Assembly (NCBI GenBank): GCA_049512935.1
Contig: JBEKWR010000002.1
Location: 1 to 64,000 of the forward strand
DNA from: Candidatus Bathyarchaeia archaeon
Lineage (GTDB): Archaea; Thermoproteota; Bathyarchaeia; Bathyarchaeales; Bathycorpusculaceae
Reading direction: 5' to 3'
Length of the DNA stretch: 64,000 nucleotides
The notes beneath the pieces are model-generated. The model did not search any database, was not told the DNA's origin, and saw nothing but the letters and a program-made list of their open reading frames with translations. Within the stretch, counting starts at the first letter, position 1; every line of letters starts with the position of its first letter. Made by a program: the position numbers and the translations under genes. Shown one piece after another: positions 1 to 47,624 of this stretch.

Positions 1-1002
1 ACAACAGGCGCACAACTATGGGGTCCAACAGCACTCCCAGGCGCAAGAGCATTTGACTCACTAGGAGCCAACTGTGTCGCAGCCAACGGCATCGACTACA
101 TATGGCTGTACGGAGGAGACGTTTACGCAGTCAACATCTATACAGGCTCTATTCTCTGGCACTACGCTACACCAAGCGGCGGAGAAGAATCGCCTTACGG
201 AACCGAACCATTATGGACATTCAGCGTCGGCACAGTAGCAGGCGGATTAGTCTTCGTCCCAGAAGGACACATGTACAGTCCACCACTGTTCCACGGCGCA
301 CAACAACTAGCACTGAACGCCACTAACGGACACCCCGTTTGGAGCGAACTTGCCTTCGACGTAACAAGTGCACCAGCAGTCTCAGACGGCGTCGCAGTAA
401 CACTCAACGCATACGACAACCAAATATACGCGTGGGGCATGGGTCCAAGCAAGACAACAGTCGCTGCACCTGACGCAGCCGTGTCAACCGACGCGCCGAT
501 AACTATAACAGGCACAGTCATGGACATCTCGGCAGGTTCACAGCAAAATGCAGTCGCAGCAAACTTCCCCAACGGTCTACCATGCGTTTCCGACGCGAAC
601 ATGAGTGCATGGATGGAATACGTCTACATGCAGCAGCCAATGCCAACCAACATCATCGGAGTCCCAGTCACCGTTAGCGTACTTGACTCAAACGGCAACA
701 GCCACGTAATAGGCATCGCAATGACCAACGCCATGGGAACATGGGGCTTAAACTGGACACCTAACATCCCAGGCAACTTCACCGTCACAGCAACCTTCTG
801 CGGCACAAACTCGTACTTTGGATCTTCCGCCACAACATACTTCTGCGCCAGCGCACCGGCAACAACACCAGCACCAACTGCTTCGCCTATTTCAGGCCTT
901 GCATCGACAGGGAGCCTGATGTTGGGAATAGCAATAGTAGTGATCGTTATTGTCATTGTCGGCGCAGTCCTAGCAGTACTGATGCTAAGAAAACGACCAT
1001 AA
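1..1002 (+). CDS. PQQ-like beta-propeller surface protein, 3' part (5' end outside window), C-terminal TM anchor
   Basis: Frame 1 is open from base 1 (TTGAQLWGPT...VYAVNIYTGSILWHY...) into ORF 271..1002. Ig-like domain, P/T-rich linker, hydrophobic helix, basic tail RKRP. Confidence 0.85.
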   Translation, partial: TTGAQLWGPTALPGARAFDSLGANCVAANGIDYIWLYGGDVYAVNIYTGSILWHYATPSGGEESPYGTEPLWTFSVGTVAGGLVFVPEGHMYSPPLFHGAQQLALNATNGHPVWSELAFDVTSAPAVSDGVAVTLNAYDNQIYAWGMGPSKTTVAAPDAAVSTDAPITITGTVMDISAGSQQNAVAANFPNGLPCVSDANMSAWMEYVYMQQPMPTNIIGVPVTVSVLDSNGNSHVIGIAMTNAMGTWGLNWTPNIPGNFTVTATFCGTNSYFGSSATTYFCASAPATTPAPTASPISGLASTGSLMLGIAIVVIVIVIVGAVLAVLMLRKRP

Positions 1003-2582: not shown

Positions 2583-2780
2583 TTAGAAAGGCGTGGACGA
2601 AAAAGGCTTAGCTTTTTCCGAATGCGGAAGCATGACGGCTCCAGTACCCGCAGGCGGCATTTGCATGCTGTGTGCCACGGCTAGGGCTATTGCCCATGTT
2701 ATGTCGTCGTGGCTGTTCTGTGGGTGGCTGAACTGTAGGTGCCCGTTTTTGGTGTAGGTGTACTTTTGCTTTTGAGCTGT
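2583..2780 (-). pseudogene. Terminase large subunit C-terminal remnant (copy A)
   Basis: Reads KYTYTKNGHLQFSHPQNSHDDITWAIALAVA, the HDDxxxALALA nuclease motif. No start codon; frameshifted upstream relative to the copy at 41293. Confidence 0.7.
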
Positions 2781-2849
2781 TGCATCAACGCCAACCAAGC
2801 AAACAACCCCCAGCAGCCCACACAAAAATAAGCACAAATAACGCCCAAA

Positions 2850-3040
2850 CCTCGAAAGTCGCAACCCGCAAACACCTTCAAGCCCCAAACCCAAGAAGCA
2901 ACCCAAAACGAACACTGATTGTCGACGGGTAGGGGGGAGGGGGTCTAGTATTAGTGACAGAATTCCAACACAAATATGGGTCGCGCCAAAGCGGAAAGTC
3001 GCAACTTTCCCGTAGCAAAAGTCGCAACTTAAAAATTAAC
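2850..3040 (+). repeat. Dispersed repeat copy A (AAAGTCGCA motifs, 40-bp core 2994-3033, G-rich motif 2927-2952)
   Basis: Core gaaagtcgcaactttcccgtagcaaaagtcgcaacttaaa is identical at 4060-4099 and 42604-42643. Confidence 0.9.
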
Positions 3041-3162
3041 CCAAAAACCATCCTAAAACCCTTCAGAAAAAGCACCTGAAAAATCCGCAAAGCCGAAAAA
3101 CTTAAGTGTTGAGAGCTTGTAGTTTCTGTCTTAGAACTAAAAACACATGGATGTTGAATCAA

Positions 3163-3714
3163 TTGGCTGTTGAAGGTTTTTTCGAAAACAAAAGGCAACC
3201 TGTAGAAGCAAAAGTCGGCGATTTAACCCCACAATCTAAAGCGGTTAACGTTACGGCCAAAGTTGTATCTAAAACTGAGATTAGGGAAATCCCAATGGGC
3301 AGAGACGGCTCTCCCCACAAGGTTAGCGACGCGCTGGTCGGCGACGAAACAGGCGTAGTGTACCTGACACTTTGGGACGACAACATTGAGAAAGTCAACG
3401 AAGGCGACAGTTTACGCGTGGAAAACGGCTATGTAACTCTTTTCAAAGGCAACATCCGCCTGAACATCGGCAAATACGGCAAGCTTGAACCAGCAAAAGA
3501 ACCCTTAAGCGTCGAAGTAAACACAGAAAACAACGTGTCAAGCAAAACATACGAGCAGGAACGCAGACCATTCAGAGGCGGCGGCGGAAGAGGCGGATAC
3601 GGCGGCGGTGGTAGAGGACGCGGTGGCTACGGTGGAGGCGGCGGCGGATACGGTGGCAGAGACAGAGGCGACAGAGACCGACGCGGTGGCGGCGGCTACA
3701 GACCCCGATACTAA
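3163..3714 (+). CDS. ssb: Single-stranded DNA-binding protein (single OB fold, RG-rich tail)
   Basis: VNVTAKV...VGDETG...LTLW...VENGYV...LNIGKYG OB fold, followed by an RGG/GGY tail. TTG start at 3163 is likely. Confidence 0.9.
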   Translation: MAVEGFFENKRQPVEAKVGDLTPQSKAVNVTAKVVSKTEIREIPMGRDGSPHKVSDALVGDETGVVYLTLWDDNIEKVNEGDSLRVENGYVTLFKGNIRLNIGKYGKLEPAKEPLSVEVNTENNVSSKTYEQERRPFRGGGGRGGYGGGGRGRGGYGGGGGGYGGRDRGDRDRRGGGGYRPRY

Positions 3715-3924
3715 GCATAGAGCTCAGAGTGTTGAAAAACAACCTAACTCTTTTTGCCTTTTTATTTTCCTTTATTGAATCTAATTTCTATTTTGCACCT
3801 TGCCAGATTACCAAGGCTATTTGGGCATATCTAATCACAGGAGCAGCTCAACCGTTTTGTCACCACACCTGCAAAGAACCAAAAAAACCCCAGCAAACCC
3901 GAACCCGCCGCCGAGAAACCTCAC

Positions 3925-4102
3925 CTGCCCATAACCGACAATAACCGCAACATGGAGTCAACATTGAAAGTCGCAATCCGCCCATGCGAAAGTCGCAACC
4001 CGCAAACGCCTTCAAGCCCCAAACCAAGAAAGCAACCCGAAACGCAAAGAACTTAGGGTGAAAGTCGCAACTTTCCCGTAGCAAAAGTCGCAACTTAAAA
4101 AT
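3925..4102 (+). repeat. Dispersed repeat copy B
   Basis: Near-identical to 42471-42643. AAAGTCGCA motifs at 3967, 3989, 4061 and 4084. Confidence 0.9.
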
Positions 4103-4159
4103 TCAGCGAAAAACCAACCGCCGAAAACACGCAACAAAAACAAAAAATAAGAAAGGGTA

Positions 4160-4973: not shown

Positions 4974-6062
4974 TTAAGAATTATTTGGCAAAGGGTCAAT
5001 TTTAATTTTTTCCGTGTTCGTCACGGTTGATAACGCAGGTTTCAGTTCAAGCCATTGTTGAGCTCCAAAGCCTATGATGAAGAACAACCACAAGGTTATG
5101 ATTCTTGTAAGTATGGTTGCTGTTGCGGCGATTGCTCCTGGAACGCCCATTGAAATGTAAAGTGTGGTCATTACTGCCTCTGGAAGCCCAACTTCAAACG
5201 GTATACCCACAGGAATCGATTTGACAGCTAGGAATATGGCTGAAGTAACGATGATTACGCTTATCGAAACTGCATGATTCAGCGACATGAAGACAAGAAA
5301 GGGAATGCTTAGGCTAAAAAACCAGGATAAAAGCAAATAGAACAGCGAGAAAGCAATGGCTCGCGGCGTATGACGGAACTCTTTCATTGAATCATGAAAG
5401 TGCGTCGTGATTTCAACGGCTTCTTCCTTCAATTTTCCCAGTTTTATTCTTCCCTTGCTGATTTTCTGGGTGAAATTCGTTAGCCAGTTGATTCCTTTCA
5501 GGGTCCATTGCTCTTTTAAAGACAAAACGGCCATTAGAATGAGTATGACTATTATTACTGCTGCTACCAGTATTATGAGGTTGAAAACCAACGGGTTAAC
5601 GTTGCCTCCGAAAGTGAGAAGCACTAAACCTGAGATCAAGGCAACTGCGTTTATGGTGGTGCCGATGAACCTGTGAGTGTAGAGTGAAGCCACTACTTTT
5701 CCGAACGAGCCGCATTTGTCTCTTGTGAGTAGGTACGTTCGGGTTACTTCTCCGCTGATTGATTGTGCTGGAACGATTGTGTCTACGTACATGCCGTACC
5801 AGACGTAGAGGTAGGCTCGGGTTATGGTCATTTTTATGGAGAGGTGGTTGGTTAGGACGCGCCAAGAGATTGTGAAGAACAATACTTGGAGTAGGCCGAA
5901 GAGTATGGCTATTGAGTAGATGATTGGGTTGGCGGTTTTTGCTGTTAGAAATATTCCTACGATGTTGACGTTGAAGAGGTAGATGTAGATGAAGAACCCG
6001 GCTAAACCTAGCAGTGGGAAAATAATCATTTTCCATGATAAGTTCGGTTTAGGAGGCTGCAT
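4974..6062 (-). CDS. Lysylphosphatidylglycerol synthase TM-domain (UPF0104) flippase-like protein
   Basis: Multiple TM helices; P...SGE..R and P..VG..E motifs. Confidence 0.85.
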
Positions 6063-6360
6063 ATGGCTTTCGCACCGGTTTACACCGAGTTTGTGCAGTT
6101 ACAATTATATACTTTGCCATAATCCATGCCAACGCTTCTTCGGATGCACGCATGTGTTAAAAGTTGGTTTTGAATGGTTTTTCTTCTGGCTATTTTTTTG
6201 GGTGGTTTTTCTGGAGAAATTTAGGCTGCGACTTTTCCCGTTTGTAACTTGTGCTTGTCCAGTTGGCTGGGGTTGGCGGTTTAGAAGCTTTCGTGACCTT
6301 GGTGTTGGTGATGCAATAGCTTTTTTAAGTTTCACTTTTAATTATTTCCGCGGTGCAAGC

Positions 6361-17003: not shown

Positions 17004-20000
17004 GTGAGGGAGCAGACCTTGAGGAGAAAAAGACTGTACACTATGCTTGCACTAGTTCTCTTGACTGGCATTATGGTTTTGGTGTTCCTTGGAGCATTTA
17101 ATGTGGCTAAAGCAAACAATCAAAGCAGTGATTCAAACGGAGACCCCAACACATGGTCCATGTTCCGCAACAACTTAAGCCACACAGGCTACACCTCGTC
17201 CACTGCTCCAACAACAAACATGTTGAAATGGAGTTACAGAATAGGCGGCGGCGTTGAGTCGTCTCCTGCCGTTGTCAATGGGGTAGTTTATGTTGGCTCA
17301 AATTGGGGTGACTTTTGCGCTTTTAATGCCTCAACTGGCCATAAGATTTGGGACTATGTAAGAGGCGGTGGAGGCTTTTCGTCCCCTGCCGTTGCTAACG
17401 GCGTAGTCTACGTGGGGTCAACGGACGACAACGTGTATGCTCTGAATGCTTCAACTGGCAGTTTCATTTGGAGCTACCCAACTGGAGACGAAGTGATGTC
17501 TTCCCCTGCGGTGTCCAACGGTGTGGTCTACGTAGGTTCATGGGACGATAATGTCTATGCTCTTAACGCTACAACAGGTGGCGAAATATGGAGTTACACA
17601 ACGGGTGACCGCGTATATTCGTCTCCTGCAGTTGTTAGCGGTGTGGTCTATGTAGGCTCAGACGACGGCAACCTTTATGCCCTTAACGCCACAACAGGCA
17701 ACATAATATGGAGTCACTTCAACGACGACACAGTTGACTGGGTCGCTTCTTCTCCCGTCGTTTCTAACGGCGTTGTCTACACCGCCTCATACTTTCACGG
17801 ATATGTGTACGCATTGAACGCTTCAACAGGTAACGAAATATGGAGCTGCACATTAGACGGCGGAGTATTTTCGTCCCCCGCTGTTGTTGGCGATGTCCTC
17901 TACGTCGGCGGGAGCTACGGTAACGTGTATGCGTTGAATGCTTCAACCGGCGGGCAGATTTGGAGTTTCTTTGCTGGTAACAGCGTGTGGTCTTCTCCTG
18001 CTGTTGCCGACGGTATAGTCTACATAGGCTCGGAGAACAGTAACGTCTATGCTTTGAATGCTTCCACAGGCAGCCCGATTTGGAATTACCAAACGAACGC
18101 CGTAGTGGATTCCTCTCCTGCTGTCGCTGATGGCGTGGTCTACATAGGCTCCGATGACGGAAACGTGTACGCTTTCGGTACGCCCAATTATAGTGCCTCT
18201 GCCTTGTTCAGCAGCATCAATCAGGGGCAGACTGACCTCTTAACTTCATCTGCAACTAGTGGTGACTGGTTTGTTTATCCTCCACGAAGTGAGGGCTACG
18301 AGGAAATTTATGATTCGTCTCCTGCAAGCTACGTTTTTAATTCCTCAGGAGCTCCTTTGGGAACTTGGCGCTTTGAGATTCAATCGACCGACGACACAGG
18401 CGCAATCACATACTCTAACGTTGTTACGGTGACGGTGAATCGTGCTTTGGCTGCTCCGACGGTTTCTGCTTTGGCGAACCCGATTGATCAGGGTCAGAGT
18501 AGCGTTTTGATTTCTTCGGCTATGTCAACGGGCGCGCCGCCTTACTCGTATCAGTGGTTTAGCGAGGCTCCAAGTGCCTCCGGGTTTTCACCTATTCAGG
18601 GCGCAACCTCTGCGAATTACATGTTTGATTCTACAGGAGCGACTTTGGGAACTTGGAGTTTTAATCTACAGGTGAATGACAGTACGGGTGTCTCTGTAAC
18701 TTCTAATACGGCTACGGTTGTGGTCAACGCTGCGGCGCCTTCTGTTGATGCTTGGTCGATGTTTCATCACGACCTAAGCCACTCTGGCTACTCAACTTAT
18801 GCAGGCCCAACGACAAACACAGTAAAATGGAGCTTCTACACAACAGGCGACAGCGTAGAATCGTCTCCCACTGTTGTTAACGGCGTAGTCTATGTAGGCT
18901 CAGGTTGCGGCTATGTTTATGCCTTGGACGCAACAACAGGTAATCAAATCTGGAACTTCTCAACAGGCGGCTGGGTGGAGTCGTCTCCTGCCGTTGTCGA
19001 CGGCGTAGTCTACATAGGCTCAGAAGATGGCAACGTCTATGCCTTGAACGCTGCAAACGGCAACCAACTCTGGAACTACACAACAGGCGGCGGTGTGGAT
19101 TCATCTCCCCGTGTTGTCAACGGCGTAGTCTACATAGGCTCTGGCGACAGCAACGTGTATGCTTTGAATGCTTCAACAGGCAGCATGATATGGAGTTACA
19201 CCACAGGTGGTGGCGTATGGTCTTCTCCTGCCGTTGTCAACGGCGTGGTCTACGTAGGCTCATTCGATGGCAACGTCTATGCCTTGAACGCTTCAACAGG
19301 GGCATACATCTGGAGCGACGCAACGGGCGGCTTGGTGCGGTCTTCTCCTGTTGTTGTTGGCGGCGTAGTCTATGTGGGCTCATTTGACGACAACGTATAT
19401 GCTTTTAATGCCACGACAGGCGCAAGAATATGGATCTCCGCAACATTTGGTTGCATAGTATCTTCTCCTGCTGTTGACGGTGGCGTGGTCTACGTAGGCT
19501 CAGAAGATGGCAACGTGTATGCTTTGAACGCTGCAAACGGCGACCAACTCTGGAGCTACACAACAGATGGCCGAGTGATTTCATCTCCCGATGTTGCAAA
19601 CGGCGTGGTCTATGTAGGCTCAGATGACGGCAACCTGTACGCTTTGAACGCTACAGACGGCAACCCACTCTGGAGCTACACAACTGGCGGCGTTGTGTGG
19701 TCGTCTCCTGCTGTTGTCGGCGGCGTAGTCTACATAGGCTCAGAAGCCAATTACGTGTATGCTTTAAACGCAACAACAGGCACACAAATCTGGAGTTGCT
19801 TTATAGGTGGCTCTGTAGATTCGTCTCCCACCGTTGCCGGCGGCATGGTCTATGTAGGCTCATACGACGACAAGGTGTATGCTTTGGACGCTGCAACAGG
19901 CGACATAATGTGGAGCTATCCAACTAGTGGTCCCGTGTGGTCCTCTCCTGCTGTTGCAGGCGGCGTGGTCTACGTAGGCTCGGATGATGGCTGCGTCTAT

Positions 20001-23000
20001 GCTTTGAACGCCACAACAGGCTCCCAAATTTGGAGCTACCAAACAGGCGACTGGGTGGAGTCCTCTCCTGCTGTTGTTGGCGGCGTGGTCTACGTAGGCT
20101 CGGGTAACGGTAACGTGTACGCTTTGAATTCTGCAAACGGCGACCAACTCTGGAGCTACACAACTGGCAGCGGGGTGTATTCTTCTCCTGCTGTTGTTGG
20201 CGGCGTGGTCTACGTAGGTTCAAGCGACGGTAACGTGTACGCTTTAGACGCTGCAAACGGCAACCAACTCTGGAGCTACACAACTGGCAGCGGGGTGAAT
20301 TCTTCTCCTGCTGTTGTTGGCGGCGTGGTCTACGTAGGTTCAAGCGACGGTAACGTGTACGCTTTAGACGCTGCAACAGGCTCCCAAATTTGGAGCTACT
20401 CAACTGGCAGCTGGATAGGTTCTTCGTCTCCTGCTGTTGCAGGCGGCGTAGTCTACATAGGCTCAGTCGGAGGCACCGTGTACGCTTTGAACGCTGCAAA
20501 CGGCAACCAACTCTGGAACTACACAACAGTTCGCTGGGTGGAATCGTCCCCTGCTATTGCAGGTGGCGTAGTCTACATAGGCTCGGGTGATGGCTACGTG
20601 TACGCTTTTGGCTCATCAACTTTAACTGCTCCCACCGTTTCGGCTTCGCCTACCACGGTGGATTGTGGCCAGACATCAAGTTTGACTTCTTCCGCTGTGA
20701 CGACGGGCACTTCTCCCTACAGTTATCAGTGGTTTGAGATGGCTCCCGACGGAACCTATGTTGCAGTGGGGACAAATTCTGCAAGTTTTAATTTTGCTAC
20801 TGATGGCTCTACAGCTGCTGGCAGCTGGAACTTCATACTTCAGGTGACCGACAGCACAGATGCGGCGGTAAACTCAACTGCGGTCTCTGTGACTGTGAAT
20901 GCATCGCTCTACGCTCCGGTTGTAAACCCAGCAGGTCCGGTTGATCAAGGTCAAACTGCAGTTGTGTATGCAACTCTGTCAGGAGGGGGCACGGCTCCTA
21001 TCACGTACGAGTGGTTTGAGAAGGCTCCCGACGGAAACTACGTTGCTGAGGGCTCGGGTGATGCTCCGGGTCTTTTCTACTTTGCAACTTCAGGCTCCAC
21101 GGCGACCGGCAGCTACAGTTTCATCCTCCAACTAAGCGACGCTACAGGTGCAGCGGTTAACTCAACCGCCCGATCAGTCACGGTCAACGCTGCGCTTGTG
21201 CCTCCCACAGTGACGCCTTCGTTTGGCACGGTGGATAGAGGTCAGACTTCAGTCTTGTCCTCGTCGTCTGTGACTTCGGGCACGTCGCCCTACACGTATC
21301 AGTGGTTTGAGAAAGACCCGAGCGGTAACTACGTTGCAGTGGGCACGAATTCAGCAGGCTTCAGCTTCAGCACCACAGGCTCGACTGCAACCGGCGTATA
21401 CCTCTTCGTTCTCCAAGTAACTGATGCCACGAACGCGGCAGTAAACTCTACTGCAGTTTCTGTCACGGTGAACGCTTCCCCGACTGTCACGGTGAGTGGC
21501 AGCCCTTCGCCTGGGACGATCGGGGTACCAGTCACCTTCACCGCTGTCGGTTCCGGCGGCACGGGAACTTTGACTTACAACTGGTACATCGGTTATACCG
21601 AGGTTCAAAGCGGATCAAGCAACACCTACACTGCTACTCCAACTTCAAGCGGTTCATTCTCTGTTAATGTTTCAGTTACCGATAGCTTAACTGAGACTTC
21701 CAATCAGGTCACTGGATCCGTTTATGTCAATCCATCTGTCACGTATAACTTCGCGTCGCTTTCCTCGTCAACCATAGATTATGGTGGTTCGGTAACCGAC
21801 GCAGTGACACTTGAATTAGGTCTTACCGGACCAGTTGCTTCTGGAGCCACTGGATCTGTAACATTTTACTGGTCAACCGACGACGCCACCTGGAATCAAT
21901 TTGATGTAGAAACCCTAGTTGACGGTTCAGCTACTTCCGCTGCGTTCGTTCCCGCTGCTTCTGGAACCTACTATATCGAGGCTGCTTACCCCGGCGACTC
22001 CAACTATTTGCCTTCTTCTAGCACGTCAGATTTGACTGTGAACAGTGCCCCTTCAGCGAGCATTTCTCCCGGTTCATGGACGATGGATGTTGGGCAGTCT
22101 ACGACGTTTACTGCCACTGCCTCTGGCGGTTCAGGCACTTACACGAATTACCAGTGGTACGCGAATGGGCTATTAGCTCAGTCTGGGAGCGCGTCAACGA
22201 TGACTTGGGGGTCTCCAAACGCAGGCACTTTCTTGATTACCGTGAAGGTTACTGACAGTTATGGTGTGACTTCTGTTCTGTCTTCTGCTGCGACTGTTAC
22301 GGTGAACTCTGCGCTGACTGCTCCGACCGTGACAGCTACTCCAGCTACGGTTGATCGGGGTCAGACTTCAGCTTTGACTTCTACGGCTGTCTCGACTGGC
22401 ACTGGTCCGTACACTTATCAGTGGCTTGAGAAGGTTCCTGGCGGAAGCTACGTTGATGTCGGCTCGAATTCTGCGAGTTTCAACTTTGTTACTTCCCAAT
22501 CCACAACCACAGGCACTTGGAGCTTCATACTTCAGGTGACCGACAGCACAGGTGCAGCGGTAAACTCAACTGCGGCGACAGACTTGGTCAATCCTGCGTT
22601 GGCTGCTCCGACAGTTACGCCGTCTCCCAGCACGGTGGATCAGGGTCAGACTTCGGCGTTATCATCATCAGCCGTAACCACGGGTACTTCTCCTTACGCT
22701 TATCAGTGGTTTGAGAAGGCTCCTGGCGGAAGCTACGTTATTGTCGGCGCGAATTCTGCAGGCTTCAGTTTCGCCACAACTAGTGCAACGGCTACGGGCA
22801 GTTGGAACTTCATGCTTCAAGTGACTGACAACGCTGACACAGCGGTAAACTCTACTGCCGTGGCGGTTGCGGTAAATGTTGATCCGACCGTAAGTATCTC
22901 CCCCACTGTTCCGCTCACTTTGGATGTCGGGCAGCCCCAAACGTTTACGGCAACCAGCTCTGGTGGAACAGGAACACTGAGTTACCAATGGTTCCTAGAC

Positions 23001-24014
23001 GGTTCTGCTGTTTCCGGCGCGACTGGCACAAGCTACACTTTTACTCCTTCATCGACCAACTCCGCTTCGATCTATGCGACTGCCACTGACAGTCTAGACG
23101 TGACATCAGCTACATCTAACACCGTGTCTGTTTCGGTGAACCAACTCACAGTTGACGCTTCAGTCAGCGGCTCTAACGGCGCCATTAGTCCAAGCGGAAG
23201 TGTCCCCGTTAACTATGGCGGCACTCAAGTTTTCACTATCACGCCGAATACTGGATACCAAATTGCAAGCATCACAGTTAACGGTGGTTCGGTGCCTGTT
23301 ACCTCACCTTCCGGCCAAACGGTTAGCGTCACCAACGTTCAGGGCGCAGATACAATCTCAGCAACGTTTACACTAGCACCTGTATCAACTCCGACCACAA
23401 CACCAACTGCGACCCCTTCACCATCGCCTACACCGACAACTACTCCAACAGTATCGCCAACTTCGTCACCTACGGCATCATCACCATTTTCATCGAGCCT
23501 TGTAATTCCCGTCGTCGGAGGAGTCGTTGTAGCCTCTTTAATCATCGCAGCGGTAGCCACCGGAGCAGGCAAAGCCTTCCTCGCCAAACTAAGCGAAACA
23601 ATTCTCCAAAGACTAAGACACATCTTCAAAATTGGAAAAGCCAGCATATCAGTGCCCAAAGGAGTAAACATCACAGTTCATCCCCATCCTGACGTTCAAC
23701 TGATATTTAGCGAAGTAACCAAGGCTGGAGCGGCAAAAGCAACTCCACTGACGAGTTATCCGTCGCTGCCTCACGGCGAGTCATTCATCAAAGGAACCGT
23801 ATTTGACATTAAAACCTCCGCCGCCTTCACTGGAAAGGCAACCGTCGGCATTCACTTTGACGGCTCCGGATTAAATGACGCGCAAAAAATGGCGCTGAAA
23901 GTATTTCGAATACACTCGGCTTCTGTCTGGGAAGACATAACAACACACATCGACCTAAAAAACAACATTGCATACGGCGCTACAGACCACTTCTCGATAT
24001 TTGGAGTTAGATAA
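17004..24014 (+). CDS. 2336-aa surface protein: two PQQ-like beta-propeller arrays, Ig/PKD-like repeats, TM anchor, C-terminal domain
   Basis: Signal peptide; 8 + 15 SSPAV.GGVVYVGS.DG.VYAL repeats; repeated TGT.PY.YQW...FILQVTD domains; P/T linker; TM helix. Confidence 0.9.
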   Translation: MREQTLRRKRLYTMLALVLLTGIMVLVFLGAFNVAKANNQSSDSNGDPNTWSMFRNNLSHTGYTSSTAPTTNMLKWSYRIGGGVESSPAVVNGVVYVGSNWGDFCAFNASTGHKIWDYVRGGGGFSSPAVANGVVYVGSTDDNVYALNASTGSFIWSYPTGDEVMSSPAVSNGVVYVGSWDDNVYALNATTGGEIWSYTTGDRVYSSPAVVSGVVYVGSDDGNLYALNATTGNIIWSHFNDDTVDWVASSPVVSNGVVYTASYFHGYVYALNASTGNEIWSCTLDGGVFSSPAVVGDVLYVGGSYGNVYALNASTGGQIWSFFAGNSVWSSPAVADGIVYIGSENSNVYALNASTGSPIWNYQTNAVVDSSPAVADGVVYIGSDDGNVYAFGTPNYSASALFSSINQGQTDLLTSSATSGDWFVYPPRSEGYEEIYDSSPASYVFNSSGAPLGTWRFEIQSTDDTGAITYSNVVTVTVNRALAAPTVSALANPIDQGQSSVLISSAMSTGAPPYSYQWFSEAPSASGFSPIQGATSANYMFDSTGATLGTWSFNLQVNDSTGVSVTSNTATVVVNAAAPSVDAWSMFHHDLSHSGYSTYAGPTTNTVKWSFYTTGDSVESSPTVVNGVVYVGSGCGYVYALDATTGNQIWNFSTGGWVESSPAVVDGVVYIGSEDGNVYALNAANGNQLWNYTTGGGVDSSPRVVNGVVYIGSGDSNVYALNASTGSMIWSYTTGGGVWSSPAVVNGVVYVGSFDGNVYALNASTGAYIWSDATGGLVRSSPVVVGGVVYVGSFDDNVYAFNATTGARIWISATFGCIVSSPAVDGGVVYVGSEDGNVYALNAANGDQLWSYTTDGRVISSPDVANGVVYVGSDDGNLYALNATDGNPLWSYTTGGVVWSSPAVVGGVVYIGSEANYVYALNATTGTQIWSCFIGGSVDSSPTVAGGMVYVGSYDDKVYALDAATGDIMWSYPTSGPVWSSPAVAGGVVYVGSDDGCVYALNATTGSQIWSYQTGDWVESSPAVVGGVVYVGSGNGNVYALNSANGDQLWSYTTGSGVYSSPAVVGGVVYVGSSDGNVYALDAANGNQLWSYTTGSGVNSSPAVVGGVVYVGSSDGNVYALDAATGSQIWSYSTGSWIGSSSPAVAGGVVYIGSVGGTVYALNAANGNQLWNYTTVRWVESSPAIAGGVVYIGSGDGYVYAFGSSTLTAPTVSASPTTVDCGQTSSLTSSAVTTGTSPYSYQWFEMAPDGTYVAVGTNSASFNFATDGSTAAGSWNFILQVTDSTDAAVNSTAVSVTVNASLYAPVVNPAGPVDQGQTAVVYATLSGGGTAPITYEWFEKAPDGNYVAEGSGDAPGLFYFATSGSTATGSYSFILQLSDATGAAVNSTARSVTVNAALVPPTVTPSFGTVDRGQTSVLSSSSVTSGTSPYTYQWFEKDPSGNYVAVGTNSAGFSFSTTGSTATGVYLFVLQVTDATNAAVNSTAVSVTVNASPTVTVSGSPSPGTIGVPVTFTAVGSGGTGTLTYNWYIGYTEVQSGSSNTYTATPTSSGSFSVNVSVTDSLTETSNQVTGSVYVNPSVTYNFASLSSSTIDYGGSVTDAVTLELGLTGPVASGATGSVTFYWSTDDATWNQFDVETLVDGSATSAAFVPAASGTYYIEAAYPGDSNYLPSSSTSDLTVNSAPSASISPGSWTMDVGQSTTFTATASGGSGTYTNYQWYANGLLAQSGSASTMTWGSPNAGTFLITVKVTDSYGVTSVLSSAATVTVNSALTAPTVTATPATVDRGQTSALTSTAVSTGTGPYTYQWLEKVPGGSYVDVGSNSASFNFVTSQSTTTGTWSFILQVTDSTGAAVNSTAATDLVNPALAAPTVTPSPSTVDQGQTSALSSSAVTTGTSPYAYQWFEKAPGGSYVIVGANSAGFSFATTSATATGSWNFMLQVTDNADTAVNSTAVAVAVNVDPTVSISPTVPLTLDVGQPQTFTATSSGGTGTLSYQWFLDGSAVSGATGTSYTFTPSSTNSASIYATATDSLDVTSATSNTVSVSVNQLTVDASVSGSNGAISPSGSVPVNYGGTQVFTITPNTGYQIASITVNGGSVPVTSPSGQTVSVTNVQGADTISATFTLAPVSTPTTTPTATPSPSPTPTTTPTVSPTSSPTASSPFSSSLVIPVVGGVVVASLIIAAVATGAGKAFLAKLSETILQRLRHIFKIGKASISVPKGVNITVHPHPDVQLIFSEVTKAGAAKATPLTSYPSLPHGESFIKGTVFDIKTSAAFTGKATVGIHFDGSGLNDAQKMALKVFRIHSASVWEDITTHIDLKNNIAYGATDHFSIFGVR
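20131..20370 (+). repeat. Near-identical 120-bp tandem duplication within the propeller array
   Basis: 20131-20250 and 20251-20370 differ at only 2 positions. Confidence 0.9.
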
Positions 24015-36441: not shown

Positions 36442-36548
36442 TTCAAACTAATAATGAGAATGCCTTCATATTTATCTGTAACGCGCGTGCGTTCCTCCGC
36501 AGGCATCCTTTTCAAAACATGTTTCAGGAAGTTATAAAAGCGTGTTCG

Positions 36549-36568
36549 TCCCACATGGTATTGTGGGA
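36549..36568. promoter_or_regulatory. Inverted repeat, likely TA operator
   Basis: tcccaca-N6-tgtggga immediately before the antitoxin start. Confidence 0.55.
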
Positions 36569-36572
36569 AAAG

Positions 36573-36818
36573 ATGGAGCAATTAACAGTTAAAGTAGATT
36601 CAAAAGGCAGAATTTGCATTCCAGCCGAAATAAGAGAAGAATTCGGAGACACCATCACCATCAAGAAAACCCAAGAAGGCTACATGATAATTCCCGGCAA
36701 ACGCCAAGATTTTCTTGAAGAGTTCAAAAAGTTAATCAATTCTGAGCCGAAGCGTAAAGGTAAACCAAAACTTGCAACTCCAGAAGAAATGAAGTCAGTT
36801 TGGAGAACCGCCAAGTGA
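36573..36818 (+). CDS. AbrB/MazE-family antitoxin
   Basis: VKVDSKGRICIPAEIRE motif. Confidence 0.9.
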   Translation: MEQLTVKVDSKGRICIPAEIREEFGDTITIKKTQEGYMIIPGKRQDFLEEFKKLINSEPKRKGKPKLATPEEMKSVWRTAK

Positions 36819-36937
36819 AACATCAGGACAATACTGAAAAGCTGCTCAAAATGATCAATTCTAAACATCGCCGAACAGGTAAGCCTGAAAATTGGCCCCC
36901 TGAAAAGATGAAATCTATTTGGTGCAAAACCCAATGA
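36815..36937 (+). CDS. 40-aa peptide paralogous to the antitoxin C-terminus (candidate mini-antitoxin)
   Basis: MKHQDNTEKLLKMINSKHRRTGKPENWPPEKMKSIWCKTQ*; GTGA and ATGA overlaps with the neighbouring genes. Confidence 0.6.
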   Translation: MKHQDNTEKLLKMINSKHRRTGKPENWPPEKMKSIWCKTQ

Positions 36938-37371
36938 TTATCGGCTTAGACACCAACGTACTATGCTACGCCCTTGACCCAGCATATCCTGAACATGAAA
37001 ACGTGAGACATTTATTGCTCAATCTCTCACCAGAAAACCTCATTGCCCTAAACCCGACTGTTCTGCATGAGGCTTATCACACGCTCGTTAACTACTTAGA
37101 ATGGACCCCTGAAGAAGCCGCCAAAAGACTCACCGCACTTTTGAATCACCCATTTATCGAGTTCTATAACCAAACACAAAAAACCAGCCTAATCGCACTA
37201 AACCTGGCAGTAAAACACAACCTCGACGGAAGAGACGCCCTCATAATAGCCAACTTCTTAGCAAACCAAACACCCATCATGTACACCCACGACAAAAAAC
37301 TCCTAAAACTACAAAAAATAACCTGGAAAAACACCAGCTTAACCCTCAAAGACCCAACAACACAAGGCTAA
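36934..37371 (+). CDS. vapC: PIN-domain toxin
   Basis: LDTNVL, E, DALI.A, THD acidic PIN residues. Confidence 0.9.
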   Translation: MIIGLDTNVLCYALDPAYPEHENVRHLLLNLSPENLIALNPTVLHEAYHTLVNYLEWTPEEAAKRLTALLNHPFIEFYNQTQKTSLIALNLAVKHNLDGRDALIIANFLANQTPIMYTHDKKLLKLQKITWKNTSLTLKDPTTQG

Positions 37372-38524: not shown

Positions 38525-38668
38525 AACAACTTCCCTTTTTACCGTTCAAATCTACTTTTCCTTTATTCTAACAAGCAAGCTTTGACCCTTCATATGCAAA
38601 GTTGAGACAGACAAAAGCTGCCTAAGCCTGATCCAAGCCCTAAACCTAAAAAGCTGCCCGAAACAAGC

Positions 38669-38730
38669 CCTGACTGGCGACGAGGGGAGGAGGTCTACTA
38701 TTTACATCAAAATCCCATTGTAAATATGGA
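38669..38730 (+). repeat. Partial degenerate copy of the dispersed repeat (G-rich segment)
   Basis: ctgactggcgacgaggggaggaggtctactatt...aaatatgg aligns with 2915-2979 ctgattgtcgacgggtaggggggagggggtctagtatt...aaatatgg. Confidence 0.65.
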
Positions 38731-41292: not shown

Positions 41293-41490
41293 CTAAAAAG
41301 GAGAGGGCGAAAAAAGCTTGGCTTTATCTGAATGCGGAAGCATCACGGCTCCTGTACCCGAAGGGGGTATTTGCATGCTGTGTGCTACTGCTAGAGCTAG
41401 TGCCCATGTCGTGTCGTCGTGGCTGTTTTGTGGGTGGCTGAACATTAGGTGTCTGTTTTTGGTGTAGGTGTATTGTTGCTCGTTTAGCTG
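41293..41490 (-). pseudogene. Terminase large subunit C-terminal remnant (copy C)
   Basis: QLNEQQYTYTKNRHLMFSHPQNSHDDTTWALALAVAHSMQIPPSGTGAVMLPHSDK...; colinear with 2583-2780. Confidence 0.72.
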
Positions 41491-41567
41491 TTAGCAACGC
41501 TCTCAATCGTCGAAGACTTGGATGCCAACAACGTTTTATATACGGACATTGTATATACATTTCTCGT

Positions 41568-41792
41568 ATGTCAGAAGTAATTACTGTTAGAGTCAAAAAG
41601 ACACTGAAAGAAAAAATACGAAAACACAGAATAAACGTCAGCAAAACCGTCAGAGAAGCTCTCGAAGATGAAGTCAAGAAGCGGGAAAACGCTGAACTAT
41701 CCCAAGCCATAACTCAAATGAAAGCTGTCTTACAAAAGATCCCAGATGACGAAATCGTGAAAGCCATAAGGGAATCAAGAGACCAACGATGA
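41568..41792 (+). CDS. vapB: RHH/CcdA-like antitoxin
   Basis: VITVRV...LKE.....INVS..VR.ALE; ends IVKAIRESRDQR with an ATGA overlap onto the toxin. Confidence 0.88.
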   Translation: MSEVITVRVKKTLKEKIRKHRINVSKTVREALEDEVKKRENAELSQAITQMKAVLQKIPDDEIVKAIRESRDQR

Positions 41793-42295
41793 AACACTGT
41801 CTGATTGATGCAAGCGCATTCATGCTTTTAATCAAAAAAGCCGACCCCAAAAGCACGATCAAATTCCTCCAAGACTCCAGCATTCTCGATTTAACCTACT
41901 ACGAGGTCGGGAACGCGGTTTGGAAAGAAAGCGTTCTTACAAAGCTGCTAACGCCAGACGCCGCGAAAACCCTACAGAGAACGGCTGAAACCGTTCTGGC
42001 AAAAATCGACCGAATAAGCGGCGAGGCAGATAGCTTCGAAAAAATCATGGAAATAGCCCAACTTGAGAAACTCACTTTTTACGATTCAAGCTACATTCAT
42101 TTCGCCAAAGAAAAAGGGCTCCAACTCATAACCGAAGACAAAGAACTCAAAACAAAAGCTCAAAAATACGTCAAAGCCCAAACCGTGACAACAGCCATTT
42201 TAGGAAAATCGTTCGGCACAGACAGAGAACGCATTAAACCCTTCACGGAAACAGACCGCGGCGAAGACTGCAACGAGTGGAAAAAAGGGTCTTAG
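41789..42295 (+). CDS. vapC: PIN-domain toxin with C-terminal extension
   Basis: LIDASA, YEVGNA.WK, TFYDSSY, LITED..L, plus an extra ~35-aa tail. Confidence 0.9.
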   Translation: MKHCLIDASAFMLLIKKADPKSTIKFLQDSSILDLTYYEVGNAVWKESVLTKLLTPDAAKTLQRTAETVLAKIDRISGEADSFEKIMEIAQLEKLTFYDSSYIHFAKEKGLQLITEDKELKTKAQKYVKAQTVTTAILGKSFGTDRERIKPFTETDRGEDCNEWKKGS

Positions 42296-42382
42296 CCTTT
42301 TCTGAATGGGGAAGCGTCACGGCTCCGTCTCCTGAACAGGGTGCTTGCATGCTGCGGGAACACTGCTGAAGCCATAGCTAAT
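42278..42382 (-). pseudogene. Degraded terminase-tail remnant (copy D)
   Basis: ggaaaaaagggtcttagccttttctgaatggggaagcgtcacggctcc...ttgcatgctg aligns with 2596-2670 and 41307-41380. Confidence 0.65.
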
Positions 42383-42470
42383 CTCAAAAGTCGCTATCCC
42401 CAAGAGCCTTGCCTTCCAAAGTGGAAAACCAAAACCCAAGCAAACCGAGCATGCCCTGGGAAACCGCCGC

Positions 42471-42645
42471 GCCCATAACCGACAATAACCTCAACATGCA
42501 GTCAACATTGAAAGTCGCATTCCGCCCATCCCAAAGTCGCAACACGCAAACACCTCCAAACCCCAACCCAAAAAAACAACCCAAAACACAAAGCGCCACG
42601 GCGGAAAGTCGCAACTTTCCCGTAGCAAAAGTCGCAACTTAAATT
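42471..42645 (+). repeat. Dispersed repeat copy C
   Basis: Matches 3927-4099; AAAGTCGCA at 42511, 42533, 42605 and 42628. Confidence 0.9.
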
Positions 42646-42987
42646 TTTTCAGGAAAAAACAAACCAAAAAATCAGAAAACCGAAATCCACTCATAAGAAA
42701 AACCAAAAAACAAACCCGAAAAACCAGACGACAGATTCGCGTTAGATGGACGACAACAGAAAAATTTTTATGCTCTCACACCCATTTTTTGGTAGGGAGT
42801 GGCGAAGCAATAGTCAAATCCGACGATTTGGCTCCGCCGCGGGCAAATATGCAGCCCTCTTCCTTTCCAAATTCTCGAGAACCTGCTTTCCCAAAGTCAA
42901 AGCATCGGCAACAACAAAGGGAATTTAGTCGAGGGATTAGAAATAGACAATCAACATTCTGTACAAGAACTTTCTGAACTTCAAAAA

Positions 42988-47231: not shown

Positions 47232-47624
47232 TTACCATGATTCTATTTGCAAGCCCTTTATTCTCTTAAAGTGAACCTGATTACGGGTAACCAGCGTCAA
47301 ACCGTTCTCAACGGCTATTGCAGCTATCATGGCGTCTCTGAAGTCTATTGTTTCCCCTTTGGCCGCCAGTGTCGCAGATATTTCAGCCGCTTTCCTTGAG
47401 GATGCAAAATCTAAAGGAAAAACGGTTAGCCTCTCAAGCAGCTTTGAGGTCTCCTTCAAGTTTTCCTGTTTTCTTTCTGACTTGTTAGCGCCAAAGAAGA
47501 GTTCAAAGGCATTAACCGAAGTAGTTGCGCCCCTGTCTTCTTCATCTATTTTGTCGACTTTTTTCTTTGCCTCTTCTTTGCCGCGTAAGATGGCGATGAG
47601 GATGTCAGTGTCCAGACATTTCAT
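47232..47624 (-). CDS. vapC: PIN-domain toxin
   Basis: LDTDILI, FEL..G, DAMIAA.A, LVTRN..HF.RI.GL motifs. Confidence 0.93.
   Translation of the reverse strand: MKCLDTDILIAILRGKEEAKKKVDKIDEEDRGATTSVNAFELFFGANKSERKQENLKETSKLLERLTVFPLDFASSRKAAEISATLAAKGETIDFRDAMIAAIAVENGLTLVTRNQVHFKRIKGLQIESW

Follow-up and report, generated by a model that had tools for sequence, protein, structure and literature searches.

Dispersed intergenic repeats can be sites of phage integration, rearrangement and gene exchange, and passages of one account describe this for the dRS3/RS arrays of Neisseria, the target of the Nf1/MDA filamentous prophage, in which a 20-bp dRS3 unit with 6-bp inverted ends is present in about 700 copies and is used by a known phage integrase (PMC3898611). 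According to passages of the same account, the Correia elements and REP2 of Neisseria carry transcription signals and protein-binding sites before unrelated genes, the Correia elements being marked by 26-bp inverted repeats and a TA duplication (PMC3898611). The reuse of promoters is reported for the "putative mobile promoters" of prokaryotes (PMC3575422), and intergenic promoter repeats of 29 and 58 bp with A/T-rich boxes are reported for halovirus HF2, an archaeal head-tailed virus, where they lie inside the virus genome (PMC8707807). Here we analyse a repeat, E, and a terminase relic, T, which together form a composite at positions 2583..4102 of a 64,000-nucleotide stretch (the window) from a Candidatus Bathyarchaeia archaeon (GenBank assembly GCA_049512935.1, contig JBEKWR010000002.1, positions 1 to 64,000 of the forward strand). 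Phased direct repeats next to an A/T-rich box are, in addition, a feature of lambda cosB and of iteron origins.

E resembles each of these systems in part. Like the dRS3/RS arrays it is dispersed and intergenic, and proviral relics and synteny breaks are found at it; unlike dRS3, E measures 240-290 bp, lacks inverted ends, is present in tens of copies and is tied to the 5' side of core genes. Its placement before unrelated genes recalls Correia elements, REP2 and the putative mobile promoters; it differs from Correia elements in having neither 26-bp inverted repeats nor a TA duplication, in its concentration on genes of the transcription and translation machinery, and in sites that are shared across species. 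It resembles the HF2 repeats as a repeated module with an A/T-rich box, and unlike them is mostly chromosomal. Its phased direct repeats by an A/T-rich box, which in one locus (L050) lie beside a terminase operon, are those of cos/pac sites and iteron origins, from which E departs in that its A/T box spans only 6-10 bp and most of its copies stand before host genes; Rep, Orc1 and Cdc6 families were found beside none of the E copies scanned. No paper listed by our literature searches describes E, and text passages of PMC10848311, supplements aside, show no such repeat. The anatomy and distribution of the two modules and the origin of T from a terminase large-subunit gene (terL) are, taken together, well supported. 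Our preferred explanation, which we advance tentatively and at slightly under even likelihood, is that E, situated upstream of the promoters of core genes, serves both for protein binding and as a recombination substrate, and that the debris of proviruses and toxin-antitoxin genes lies on its left.

Structure and distribution of E

The composite at 2583..4102 consists of two unrelated neighbouring modules, the intergenic repeat E and the terminase relic T, set in a segment of archaeal chromosome whose 60 scanned open reading frames (ORFs) include those for MCH, both PheRS subunits, S12/S7, KaiC-like ATPases and an Ssb-like OB protein. Profile searches placed three copies of E and three of T in the window, all six on the plus strand, in agreement with the single orientation that a previous reading of the letters alone (the sequence-only reading) had assigned to the clear copies. 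E is strand-asymmetric and A+C-rich (72-73% against 50% for the whole window), and is built of two pairs of the 11-mer AAAGTCGCAAC with a distance of 22-23 bp within a pair and 94 bp, or about nine helical turns by our arithmetic, between pairs, followed by a terminal A/T box; long-form copies have an additional motif on the left side.

The window contains 13 occurrences of the motif AAAGTCGCA where 1.03 are expected, a count that none of 100 shuffles reached. These occurrences comprise all five pairs that the sequence-only reading had listed (2995/3018 in E(A), 3967/3989 and 4061/4084 in E(B), 42511/42533 and 42605/42628 in E(D)), an unpaired copy at 2855 that it had missed, and two isolated minus-strand matches at 6227 and 31206. 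The 40-bp core reported at 2994, 4060 and 42604 is indeed identical at the three sites and occurs nowhere else in the window, and the longer similar blocks are likewise real (86% identity between 2584-2770 and 41294-41480; 88% between 3927-4099 and 42471-42643).

All three copies of E lie on the plus strand. E(A) is in two pieces, a left one (2853..2910) recognised by profile match, with one AAAGTCGCAAC motif and an A+C-rich stretch, and a right one (2983..3054) with a motif pair, the 40-bp core at 2994-3033 and the A/T box. Between them is a 72-nt insertion (2911..2982) that is absent from E(B), from E(D) and from the 44 loci introduced below. E(B) (3843..4120) is a full copy between two convergent genes, and E(D) (42381..42666) is a full long-form copy 322 nt upstream of a PAS histidine-kinase gene. 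The insertion in E(A) carries a G-rich motif (2927-2946) for which a degenerate second copy had been proposed near 38680. The motif itself is present; its relative is only a weak match (74% over 74 nt between 2879-2952 and 38634-38702), and both are without a counterpart in the 44 fetched loci, so that the motif, confined to two weak copies in this window, was rejected as a shared module. The relative (38634..38702, plus strand) is a weak partial copy in which an A+C-rich piece of E accompanies the G-rich motif; it is flanked by the S7 gene and a GTPase gene. Neither 38634-38702 nor 6100-6330 was detected by the E profile at an E-value of 1 or below, and both were rejected as further copies of E. 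At 6100-6335 the minus strand is A+C-rich as in E and holds a near-exact motif at 6225-6235 (one mismatch); this region lies upstream of a minus-strand gene (4974-6062) and may be an old, decayed and inverted copy.

A motif-pair scan of 185,579 species genomes, a collection that does not contain the window's own genome, returned 50 loci. The contig labels are Bathyarchaeota or Bathyarchaeia for 42 of them, Euryarchaeota for one and Limnocylindrales for one, and six loci are bacterial. The 42 come from eight metagenome-assembled genomes (MAGs), which contribute 15, 9, 8, 4, 2, 2, 1 and 1 loci. All 44 non-bacterial loci, from about ten MAGs, match E over 50-270 nt, and since none of the six bacterial loci does, we take those six as chance hits. 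The concern that the copies might be limited to the window is thereby removed, and E is a chromosomal repeat of a clade of soil-dwelling Bathyarchaeia, whose MAGs come from peat and soil samples. The nearest locus, L032, has 86% identity across the malic-enzyme gene and a copy orthologous to E(B). In an alignment of 45 copies of E, the 11-mers and two other blocks are nearly invariant and the spacers variable. The pair-to-pair distance is 94 bp in 28 of the 32 loci that have both pairs, and an A/T run of at least 6 nt starts no more than 4 nt after the last motif in all 39 pairs.

The two loci with other labels, L031 (DATHCJ010000039.1, Limnocylindrales bacterium) and L036 (CAWDSY010000013.1, Euryarchaeota archaeon), hold E together with archaeal TFE or SUI1 genes orthologous to those of Bathyarchaeota loci, and their contigs are probably mis-binned or mislabelled Bathyarchaeia. 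The strand of E is also regionally biased (e.g. CAWHDT010000005.1, CAWABA010000006.1): all five copies on a 954-kb contig are on the minus strand and all three on a 461-kb contig on the plus strand, while a 945-kb contig has five plus-strand copies at 84-683 kb and a minus-strand copy at 898 kb. This bias may track replication direction or gene strand.

Position relative to genes and variation between genomes

The relation of E to its neighbouring genes was scored in 43 loci with ORFs of at least 80 aa, leaving out L044 (matches below 100 nt) and the second copy in L013. The right-hand gene is co-oriented with E in 32 of the 43 (binomial p 0.001), and still in 24 of 34 when orthologous loci are collapsed (p 0.012). 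Nineteen of the 32 co-oriented genes fall into 11 families, namely EF-2 and TFE (3 loci each), RpoB, Spt5, SUI1 and proteasome alpha (2 each), and EF-1a, RpoH, L3, L44e and Lsm (1 each). Orthologous loci of different MAGs have nearly equal spacings between E and the gene (EF-2, 242/244/223; TFE, 137/141/133; Spt5, 375/376; RpoB, 354/350).

In the window, E(A) precedes and points at ssb (3151..3714, plus strand), which encodes an OB fold with a Gly/Arg-rich tail (Pfam Ssb-like_OB, 4.7e-17). The observation that repeats bracket this gene stands, as E(A) and E(B) flank it. However, ssb is the host's own conserved gene, with 2482 relatives of which the top 120 show 80-98% identity, on contigs of up to 695 kb, and it was rejected as viral cargo. 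An island bounded by E(B) and E(D), 38.5 kb apart, was rejected as well, the genes for PheRS, S12, S7 and MCH lying in between.

From this placement we propose that the array of AAAGTCGCAAC sites may be bound by a sequence-specific DNA-binding protein, and that E, from its place shortly before the core promoters of genes with high expression, would be an upstream regulatory or promoter-associated module. The A/T box (39 of 39 pairs) and the co-orientation (32 of 43 loci) would suit a promoter, yet the genes' own TFB recognition element (BRE)/TATA-like boxes are nearer to the start codon. Because these boxes lie 3' of E, we read E as lying at 20 to about 300 nt from the core promoter, on its upstream side, and not as the core promoter itself.

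Copies at shared sites nonetheless carry the mark of their own genome. The spacer between the last two motifs, of 13-15 nt, is genome-specific: one variant is present in all three window copies, ACTTACGCCA in 8 of one MAG's 14 copies and none of the 25 from elsewhere, and CCACAGGGCA in 5 of a second MAG's 9 copies and 1 of the 30 from elsewhere, and at orthologous loci the variant is that of the copy's own genome. Identity between copies of E within a genome exceeds that between genomes by 2.6 points, an excess reached by 43 of 2000 label permutations. A genome-specific spacer at shared sites indicates homogenisation within genomes, and therefore calls for gene conversion, repeated replacement or co-evolution with a binder. 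Because it is dispersed, E could serve as a substrate for gene conversion and crossing-over, and the role as a recombination site that the sequence-only reading had envisaged is consistent with this homogenisation and with the synteny breaks described below. E is thus an instance of dispersed non-coding DNA that is homogenised within genomes yet keeps its sites across species.

Several points weigh against this explanation. No co-oriented downstream gene follows E in 11 of the 43 copies, 10 of which lie between convergent genes, as does E(B) of the window, and at four of the 11 loci what E faces is the 3' end of an Alba or S19 gene. That BRE/TATA-like boxes belonging to the genes intervene between E and the start codon is itself a difficulty: known archaeal activators act next to the BRE, and the spacing of E from the core promoter is therefore unusual for an activator site. 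As we read them, the six bases preceding the A/T box of E are also unlike the BRE of the neighbouring genes. The within-genome excess in identity over the whole element is small, and copies at orthologous loci resemble one another no more than unrelated copies do (0.70 vs 0.69). T has a sharp outer boundary at the terL stop and a fixed inner boundary in several loci, which random decay does not explain. Furthermore, the loci were found through an exact motif pair, cover only +-2 kb around each match and are all on MAG contigs.

Genome-specific subfamilies of a dispersed, intergenic repeat would also be expected of a selfish non-autonomous element similar to MITEs (miniature inverted-repeat transposable elements), one that favours positions upstream of strongly transcribed genes and has no host function. 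We consider this quite improbable. The ends that such an element should have were not found: E(B) and E(D) lack terminal inverted repeats (no inverted pair of at least 10 nt), for which an inverted-end MITE was rejected for these two copies, and the one 12-nt inverted pair of E(A) is not terminal and is at chance level by our estimate. The ends of E are low-complexity A+C sequence that cannot be fixed to the base. No transposase, integrase or other recombinase family was found among the 60 scanned ORFs of the window, for which the absence of the first two had already been noted, and none among 92 ORFs neighbouring the other loci. Moreover, the sites and distances of E are common to several species, and the 11-mers are almost invariant in the midst of variable spacers.

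That E encodes a small RNA or a peptide is scarcely credible. Public gene callers do translate E, and several short "proteins" among the 64 database matches to the T profile (see below) start with the translated motif; the change of the last spacer from 13 to 15 nt between copies, however, would shift a reading frame. A consensus fold of 30 copies has 20 pairs of which 0 covary, single-copy folding gives z values of -0.82 and +0.87, and Rfam has no match, on which grounds a structured RNA was rejected.

The terminase relic T and the packaging alternative

T is about 210 bp long, and the minus strand of 2583-2774 reads ...SHDDITWAIALAV... T(A) (2585..2805, minus strand) starts 19 nt past the stop of the malic-enzyme gene, and its last 63 codons are open to the stop at 2583-2585. 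T(C) (41295..41517, minus strand) has 85% identity to T(A) and a frame broken by stops upstream of codon -62. The two copies read 62-63 codons to the same stop; upstream of these, T(A) has unrelated sequence. T(D') (42273..42385, minus strand) is the stop-proximal half only and is fused directly to the long-form E, and the T copies of L030 and L034 have internal stops.

While the peptides of T(A) and T(C) have no Pfam match, even at an E-value of 10 or below, a profile of the two tails found 64 proteins in a library of 1.8 billion, and six long ones among them (354-545 aa) are hit near their C-termini with E-values of 2.5e-7 to 6.4e-4. All six carry Terminase_6N and three Terminase_6C, and P0017, a relative, shows 25-32% identity to the TerL annotated in Thermus phages P23-45, P74-26 and G20c. 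The TerL-like part of the tail is its first 37 residues (profile positions 2-37); for the last 26 codons, further copies of T are the only matches. Judged by these profile matches, T is homologous to the C-terminal RNase H-like nuclease end of TerL. The minus-strand terminase-like tail of the sequence-only reading is accordingly present, and its homology is carried by the long relatives with their Terminase_6N domain, the fragment by itself having no terminase hit. Because only 62-63 codons remain, with stops or unrelated sequence upstream, T is a pseudogene relic of the 3' end of the terL gene of a head-tailed virus, and not a terminase. As 54 of the 64 matches are shorter than 150 aa, T and E are commonly mis-called as small proteins in public data.

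T is present in 5 of the 44 loci, always on the strand of E, and its likely source is indicated by L050 (contig CAWHDT010000006.1), the one locus of the 44 with an intact terL beside E. Here an intact terL N-terminus (Terminase_6N, 5e-15; PHROG "terminase large subunit", 3e-34; 58% identity to the protein P0024 over 238 aa) is preceded by a gene of 145-159 aa and an ORF of 133 aa, and then by E on the other strand; the operon adjoins the left edge of E, which is directed towards an HTH_45 gene. In L006, 42 nt of the sequence upstream of the small gene of L050 survive at the T/E junction (score 42, reached by 0 of 500 shuffles), and only about 100 nt separate this sequence from E. In the window, the T/E junction (2806..2852, plus strand) is A+C-rich and shares its first ~20 nt with that of L006, and its resemblance to L050 is not significant (score 21 vs 20.7 for shuffles). 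Because the L006 junction retains part of the operon's upstream region, T-E looks like the product of a deletion of a terS-like/terL operon. We suggest that such an operon, abutting E, would have been deleted to leave T-E, and that crossovers between copies of E may have carried T to other loci.

The small gene of L050 is a candidate terS by position only. It has 76 unnamed relatives, on contigs of up to 1.7 Mb, its best Pfam match is Phage_term_sma at an E-value of 0.056, below the cut-off, and it has no PHROG match. The model of its protein (predicted local distance difference test, pLDDT, 67.9) has no fold match at an E-value of 0.001 or below, the best values being 0.62 in PDB and 0.069 in BFVD. 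The 133-aa ORF (L050:1357-1950), which has no family or PHROG match, lies between the upstream region of the terS-like gene and E and, compared with L006, resembles an insertion into the terS-E spacer.

This arrangement brings to the fore the origin that the sequence-only reading had proposed, a viral packaging region. On such an account, E would be a pac/cos-like packaging-recognition or operator region of a head-tailed virus of Bathyarchaeia, its phased 11-mers would bind the small terminase subunit, and the chromosomal copies would be pseudo-pac sites or dispersed non-autonomous derivatives able to start the packaging of host DNA. In tailed phages, the usual place of cos and pac sites is upstream of a small gene and terL, which is where E stands in L050, and the short distance in L006, the Phage_term_sma match of the small gene, below cut-off as it is, and the TerL relics on the strand of E in the window and in 5 of 44 loci all point the same way. 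We nevertheless regard it as unlikely. An intact terL accompanies E in a single locus, the terS assignment is positional, with the poor model and the lack of a fold match just given, and E has no match in a collection of 50,697 phage records, on which its presence in known phages was rejected. E also occupies sites before EF-2, TFE, RpoB and Spt5 that different species have in common, unlike scattered viral debris. The link to a packaging operon in L050 and L006 stands, and the random scattering of the core as mainly a packaging derivative does not, its sites before housekeeping genes being shared.

A bolder variant, in which E is the recognition site of a resident, possibly domesticated packaging machine of a head-tailed virus whose terS-like protein binds the 11-mers, seems to us highly improbable. 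If it were true, the copies at core operons would be dispersed pac or recombination sites, and the segments beside the most conserved genes, or the accessory islands opposite, would be preferentially packaged and exchanged between cells. Exchange from cell to cell would also account for the homogenisation of E within each lineage, and the whole would amount to a site-directed system in archaea akin to gene transfer agents or lateral transduction.

Accessory DNA on the left of E and its meaning

The left flanks of E hold genes for TumE (4 loci), PIN, PemK, Cas4 and Cas6. In four MAGs a TumE gene with 91-95% protein identity lies directly left of E (L005:1238-1636, L013:2234-2632, L016:2249-2551, L049:2245-2643), and the right-hand genes are all different (EF-2, S19, a P-type ATPase and one unknown), an arrangement that suggests either a break of synteny at E or a mobile unit of small size. 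The window and L030 have the same layout of a full T, toxin-antitoxin gene(s), the left half of T and E, and the same junction between T(D') and E, with different cargo. In the window the cargo is a toxin-antitoxin pair (41568..42295, plus strand), made up of a CcdA/RHH-like ORF (41568-41792) and a PIN-domain ORF (41789-42295) and bracketed by T(C) and T(D'), so that over 41295-42385 the left half of T flanks the pair as a 75-nt direct repeat of 77% identity. L032 is without the whole T-E(A)-ssb block beside its copy of E(B); exact insertion boundaries were sought by alignment to L032, which gave no clean junction. At two loci, 5'-truncated tRNA-Arg-like fragments adjoin the left end of E on the opposite strand (L008:1835-1915, L020:2125-2215). 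Their anticodon loops read TCT-like and CCT, and alignment to the intact tRNA-Arg(TCT) of L018 shows that the L020 piece runs from the D loop to the 3' end and that the L008 piece is more decayed. The only tRNAs called by ARAGORN are in L016 and L018 and not next to E, and Rfam gave no tRNA in either L008 or L020; the idea of tRNA genes bordering E was accordingly rejected, and the fragments are an observation and no proof of integration.

These left-hand features could be taken to mean that E is a multi-copy attachment or recombination target, at whose left edge viruses and islands integrate as they do at tRNA genes, its genome-specific sequence then arising from repeated exchange with a co-evolving element. 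The consistent left-hand position of toxin-antitoxin, Cas4, Cas6, TerL and tRNA-Arg-like remnants, the shared layout and junction of the window and L030 around different cargo, the one TumE ahead of four different right-hand genes, and the absence of the T-E(A)-ssb block from L032 all speak in its favour. We consider it unlikely all the same, given that no recombinase was found among the scanned ORFs of the window or the 92 neighbouring ones, that no intact element between two att-like repeats was seen in the window or in the +-2 kb loci, and that ARAGORN and Rfam did not recognise the tRNA-like fragments. A promoter region that heads any conserved operon is, besides, a synteny break anyway. 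We therefore retain the reading of E as a putative binding module before core-gene promoters and a recombination substrate, on whose left, gene-distal side viral and accessory DNA would accumulate. Protein binding, an effect on transcription and the recombination history are inferred here.

The window has other toxin genes and repeats. Three PIN-domain toxin genes occur within 64 kb (36519-37371, 41568-42295 and 47235-47624), two of them with an antitoxin-like ORF (MazE-like at 36519-36818 and the CcdA/RHH-like one at 41568-41792), and one PIN pair is directly upstream of the S12/S7 operon. A 2336-aa ORF at 17004-24014 has many PQQ/beta-propeller repeats followed by Ig/PKD-like domains; its DNA has an 18-20-copy repeat with 120-nt spacing, and a similar protein leaves the left end of the window (1-1002).

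The way in which archaea coordinate the expression of genes for ribosomes, translation factors and RNA polymerase is poorly understood. One conserved module stands before genes for EF-2, EF-1a, RpoB, RpoH, Spt5, TFE, L3, L44e, SUI1, proteasome alpha, Lsm and SSB, and offers a concrete 11-bp motif together with two candidate binders encoded beside it, the HTH_45 winged-helix protein of L018 and L050 and the terS-like protein of L050. E also marks sites at which proviral and toxin-antitoxin DNA piles up and at which virus DNA and chromosome seem to meet and recombine, and it bears in this way on the rearrangement of, and gene exchange between, the genomes of uncultivated Bathyarchaeia.

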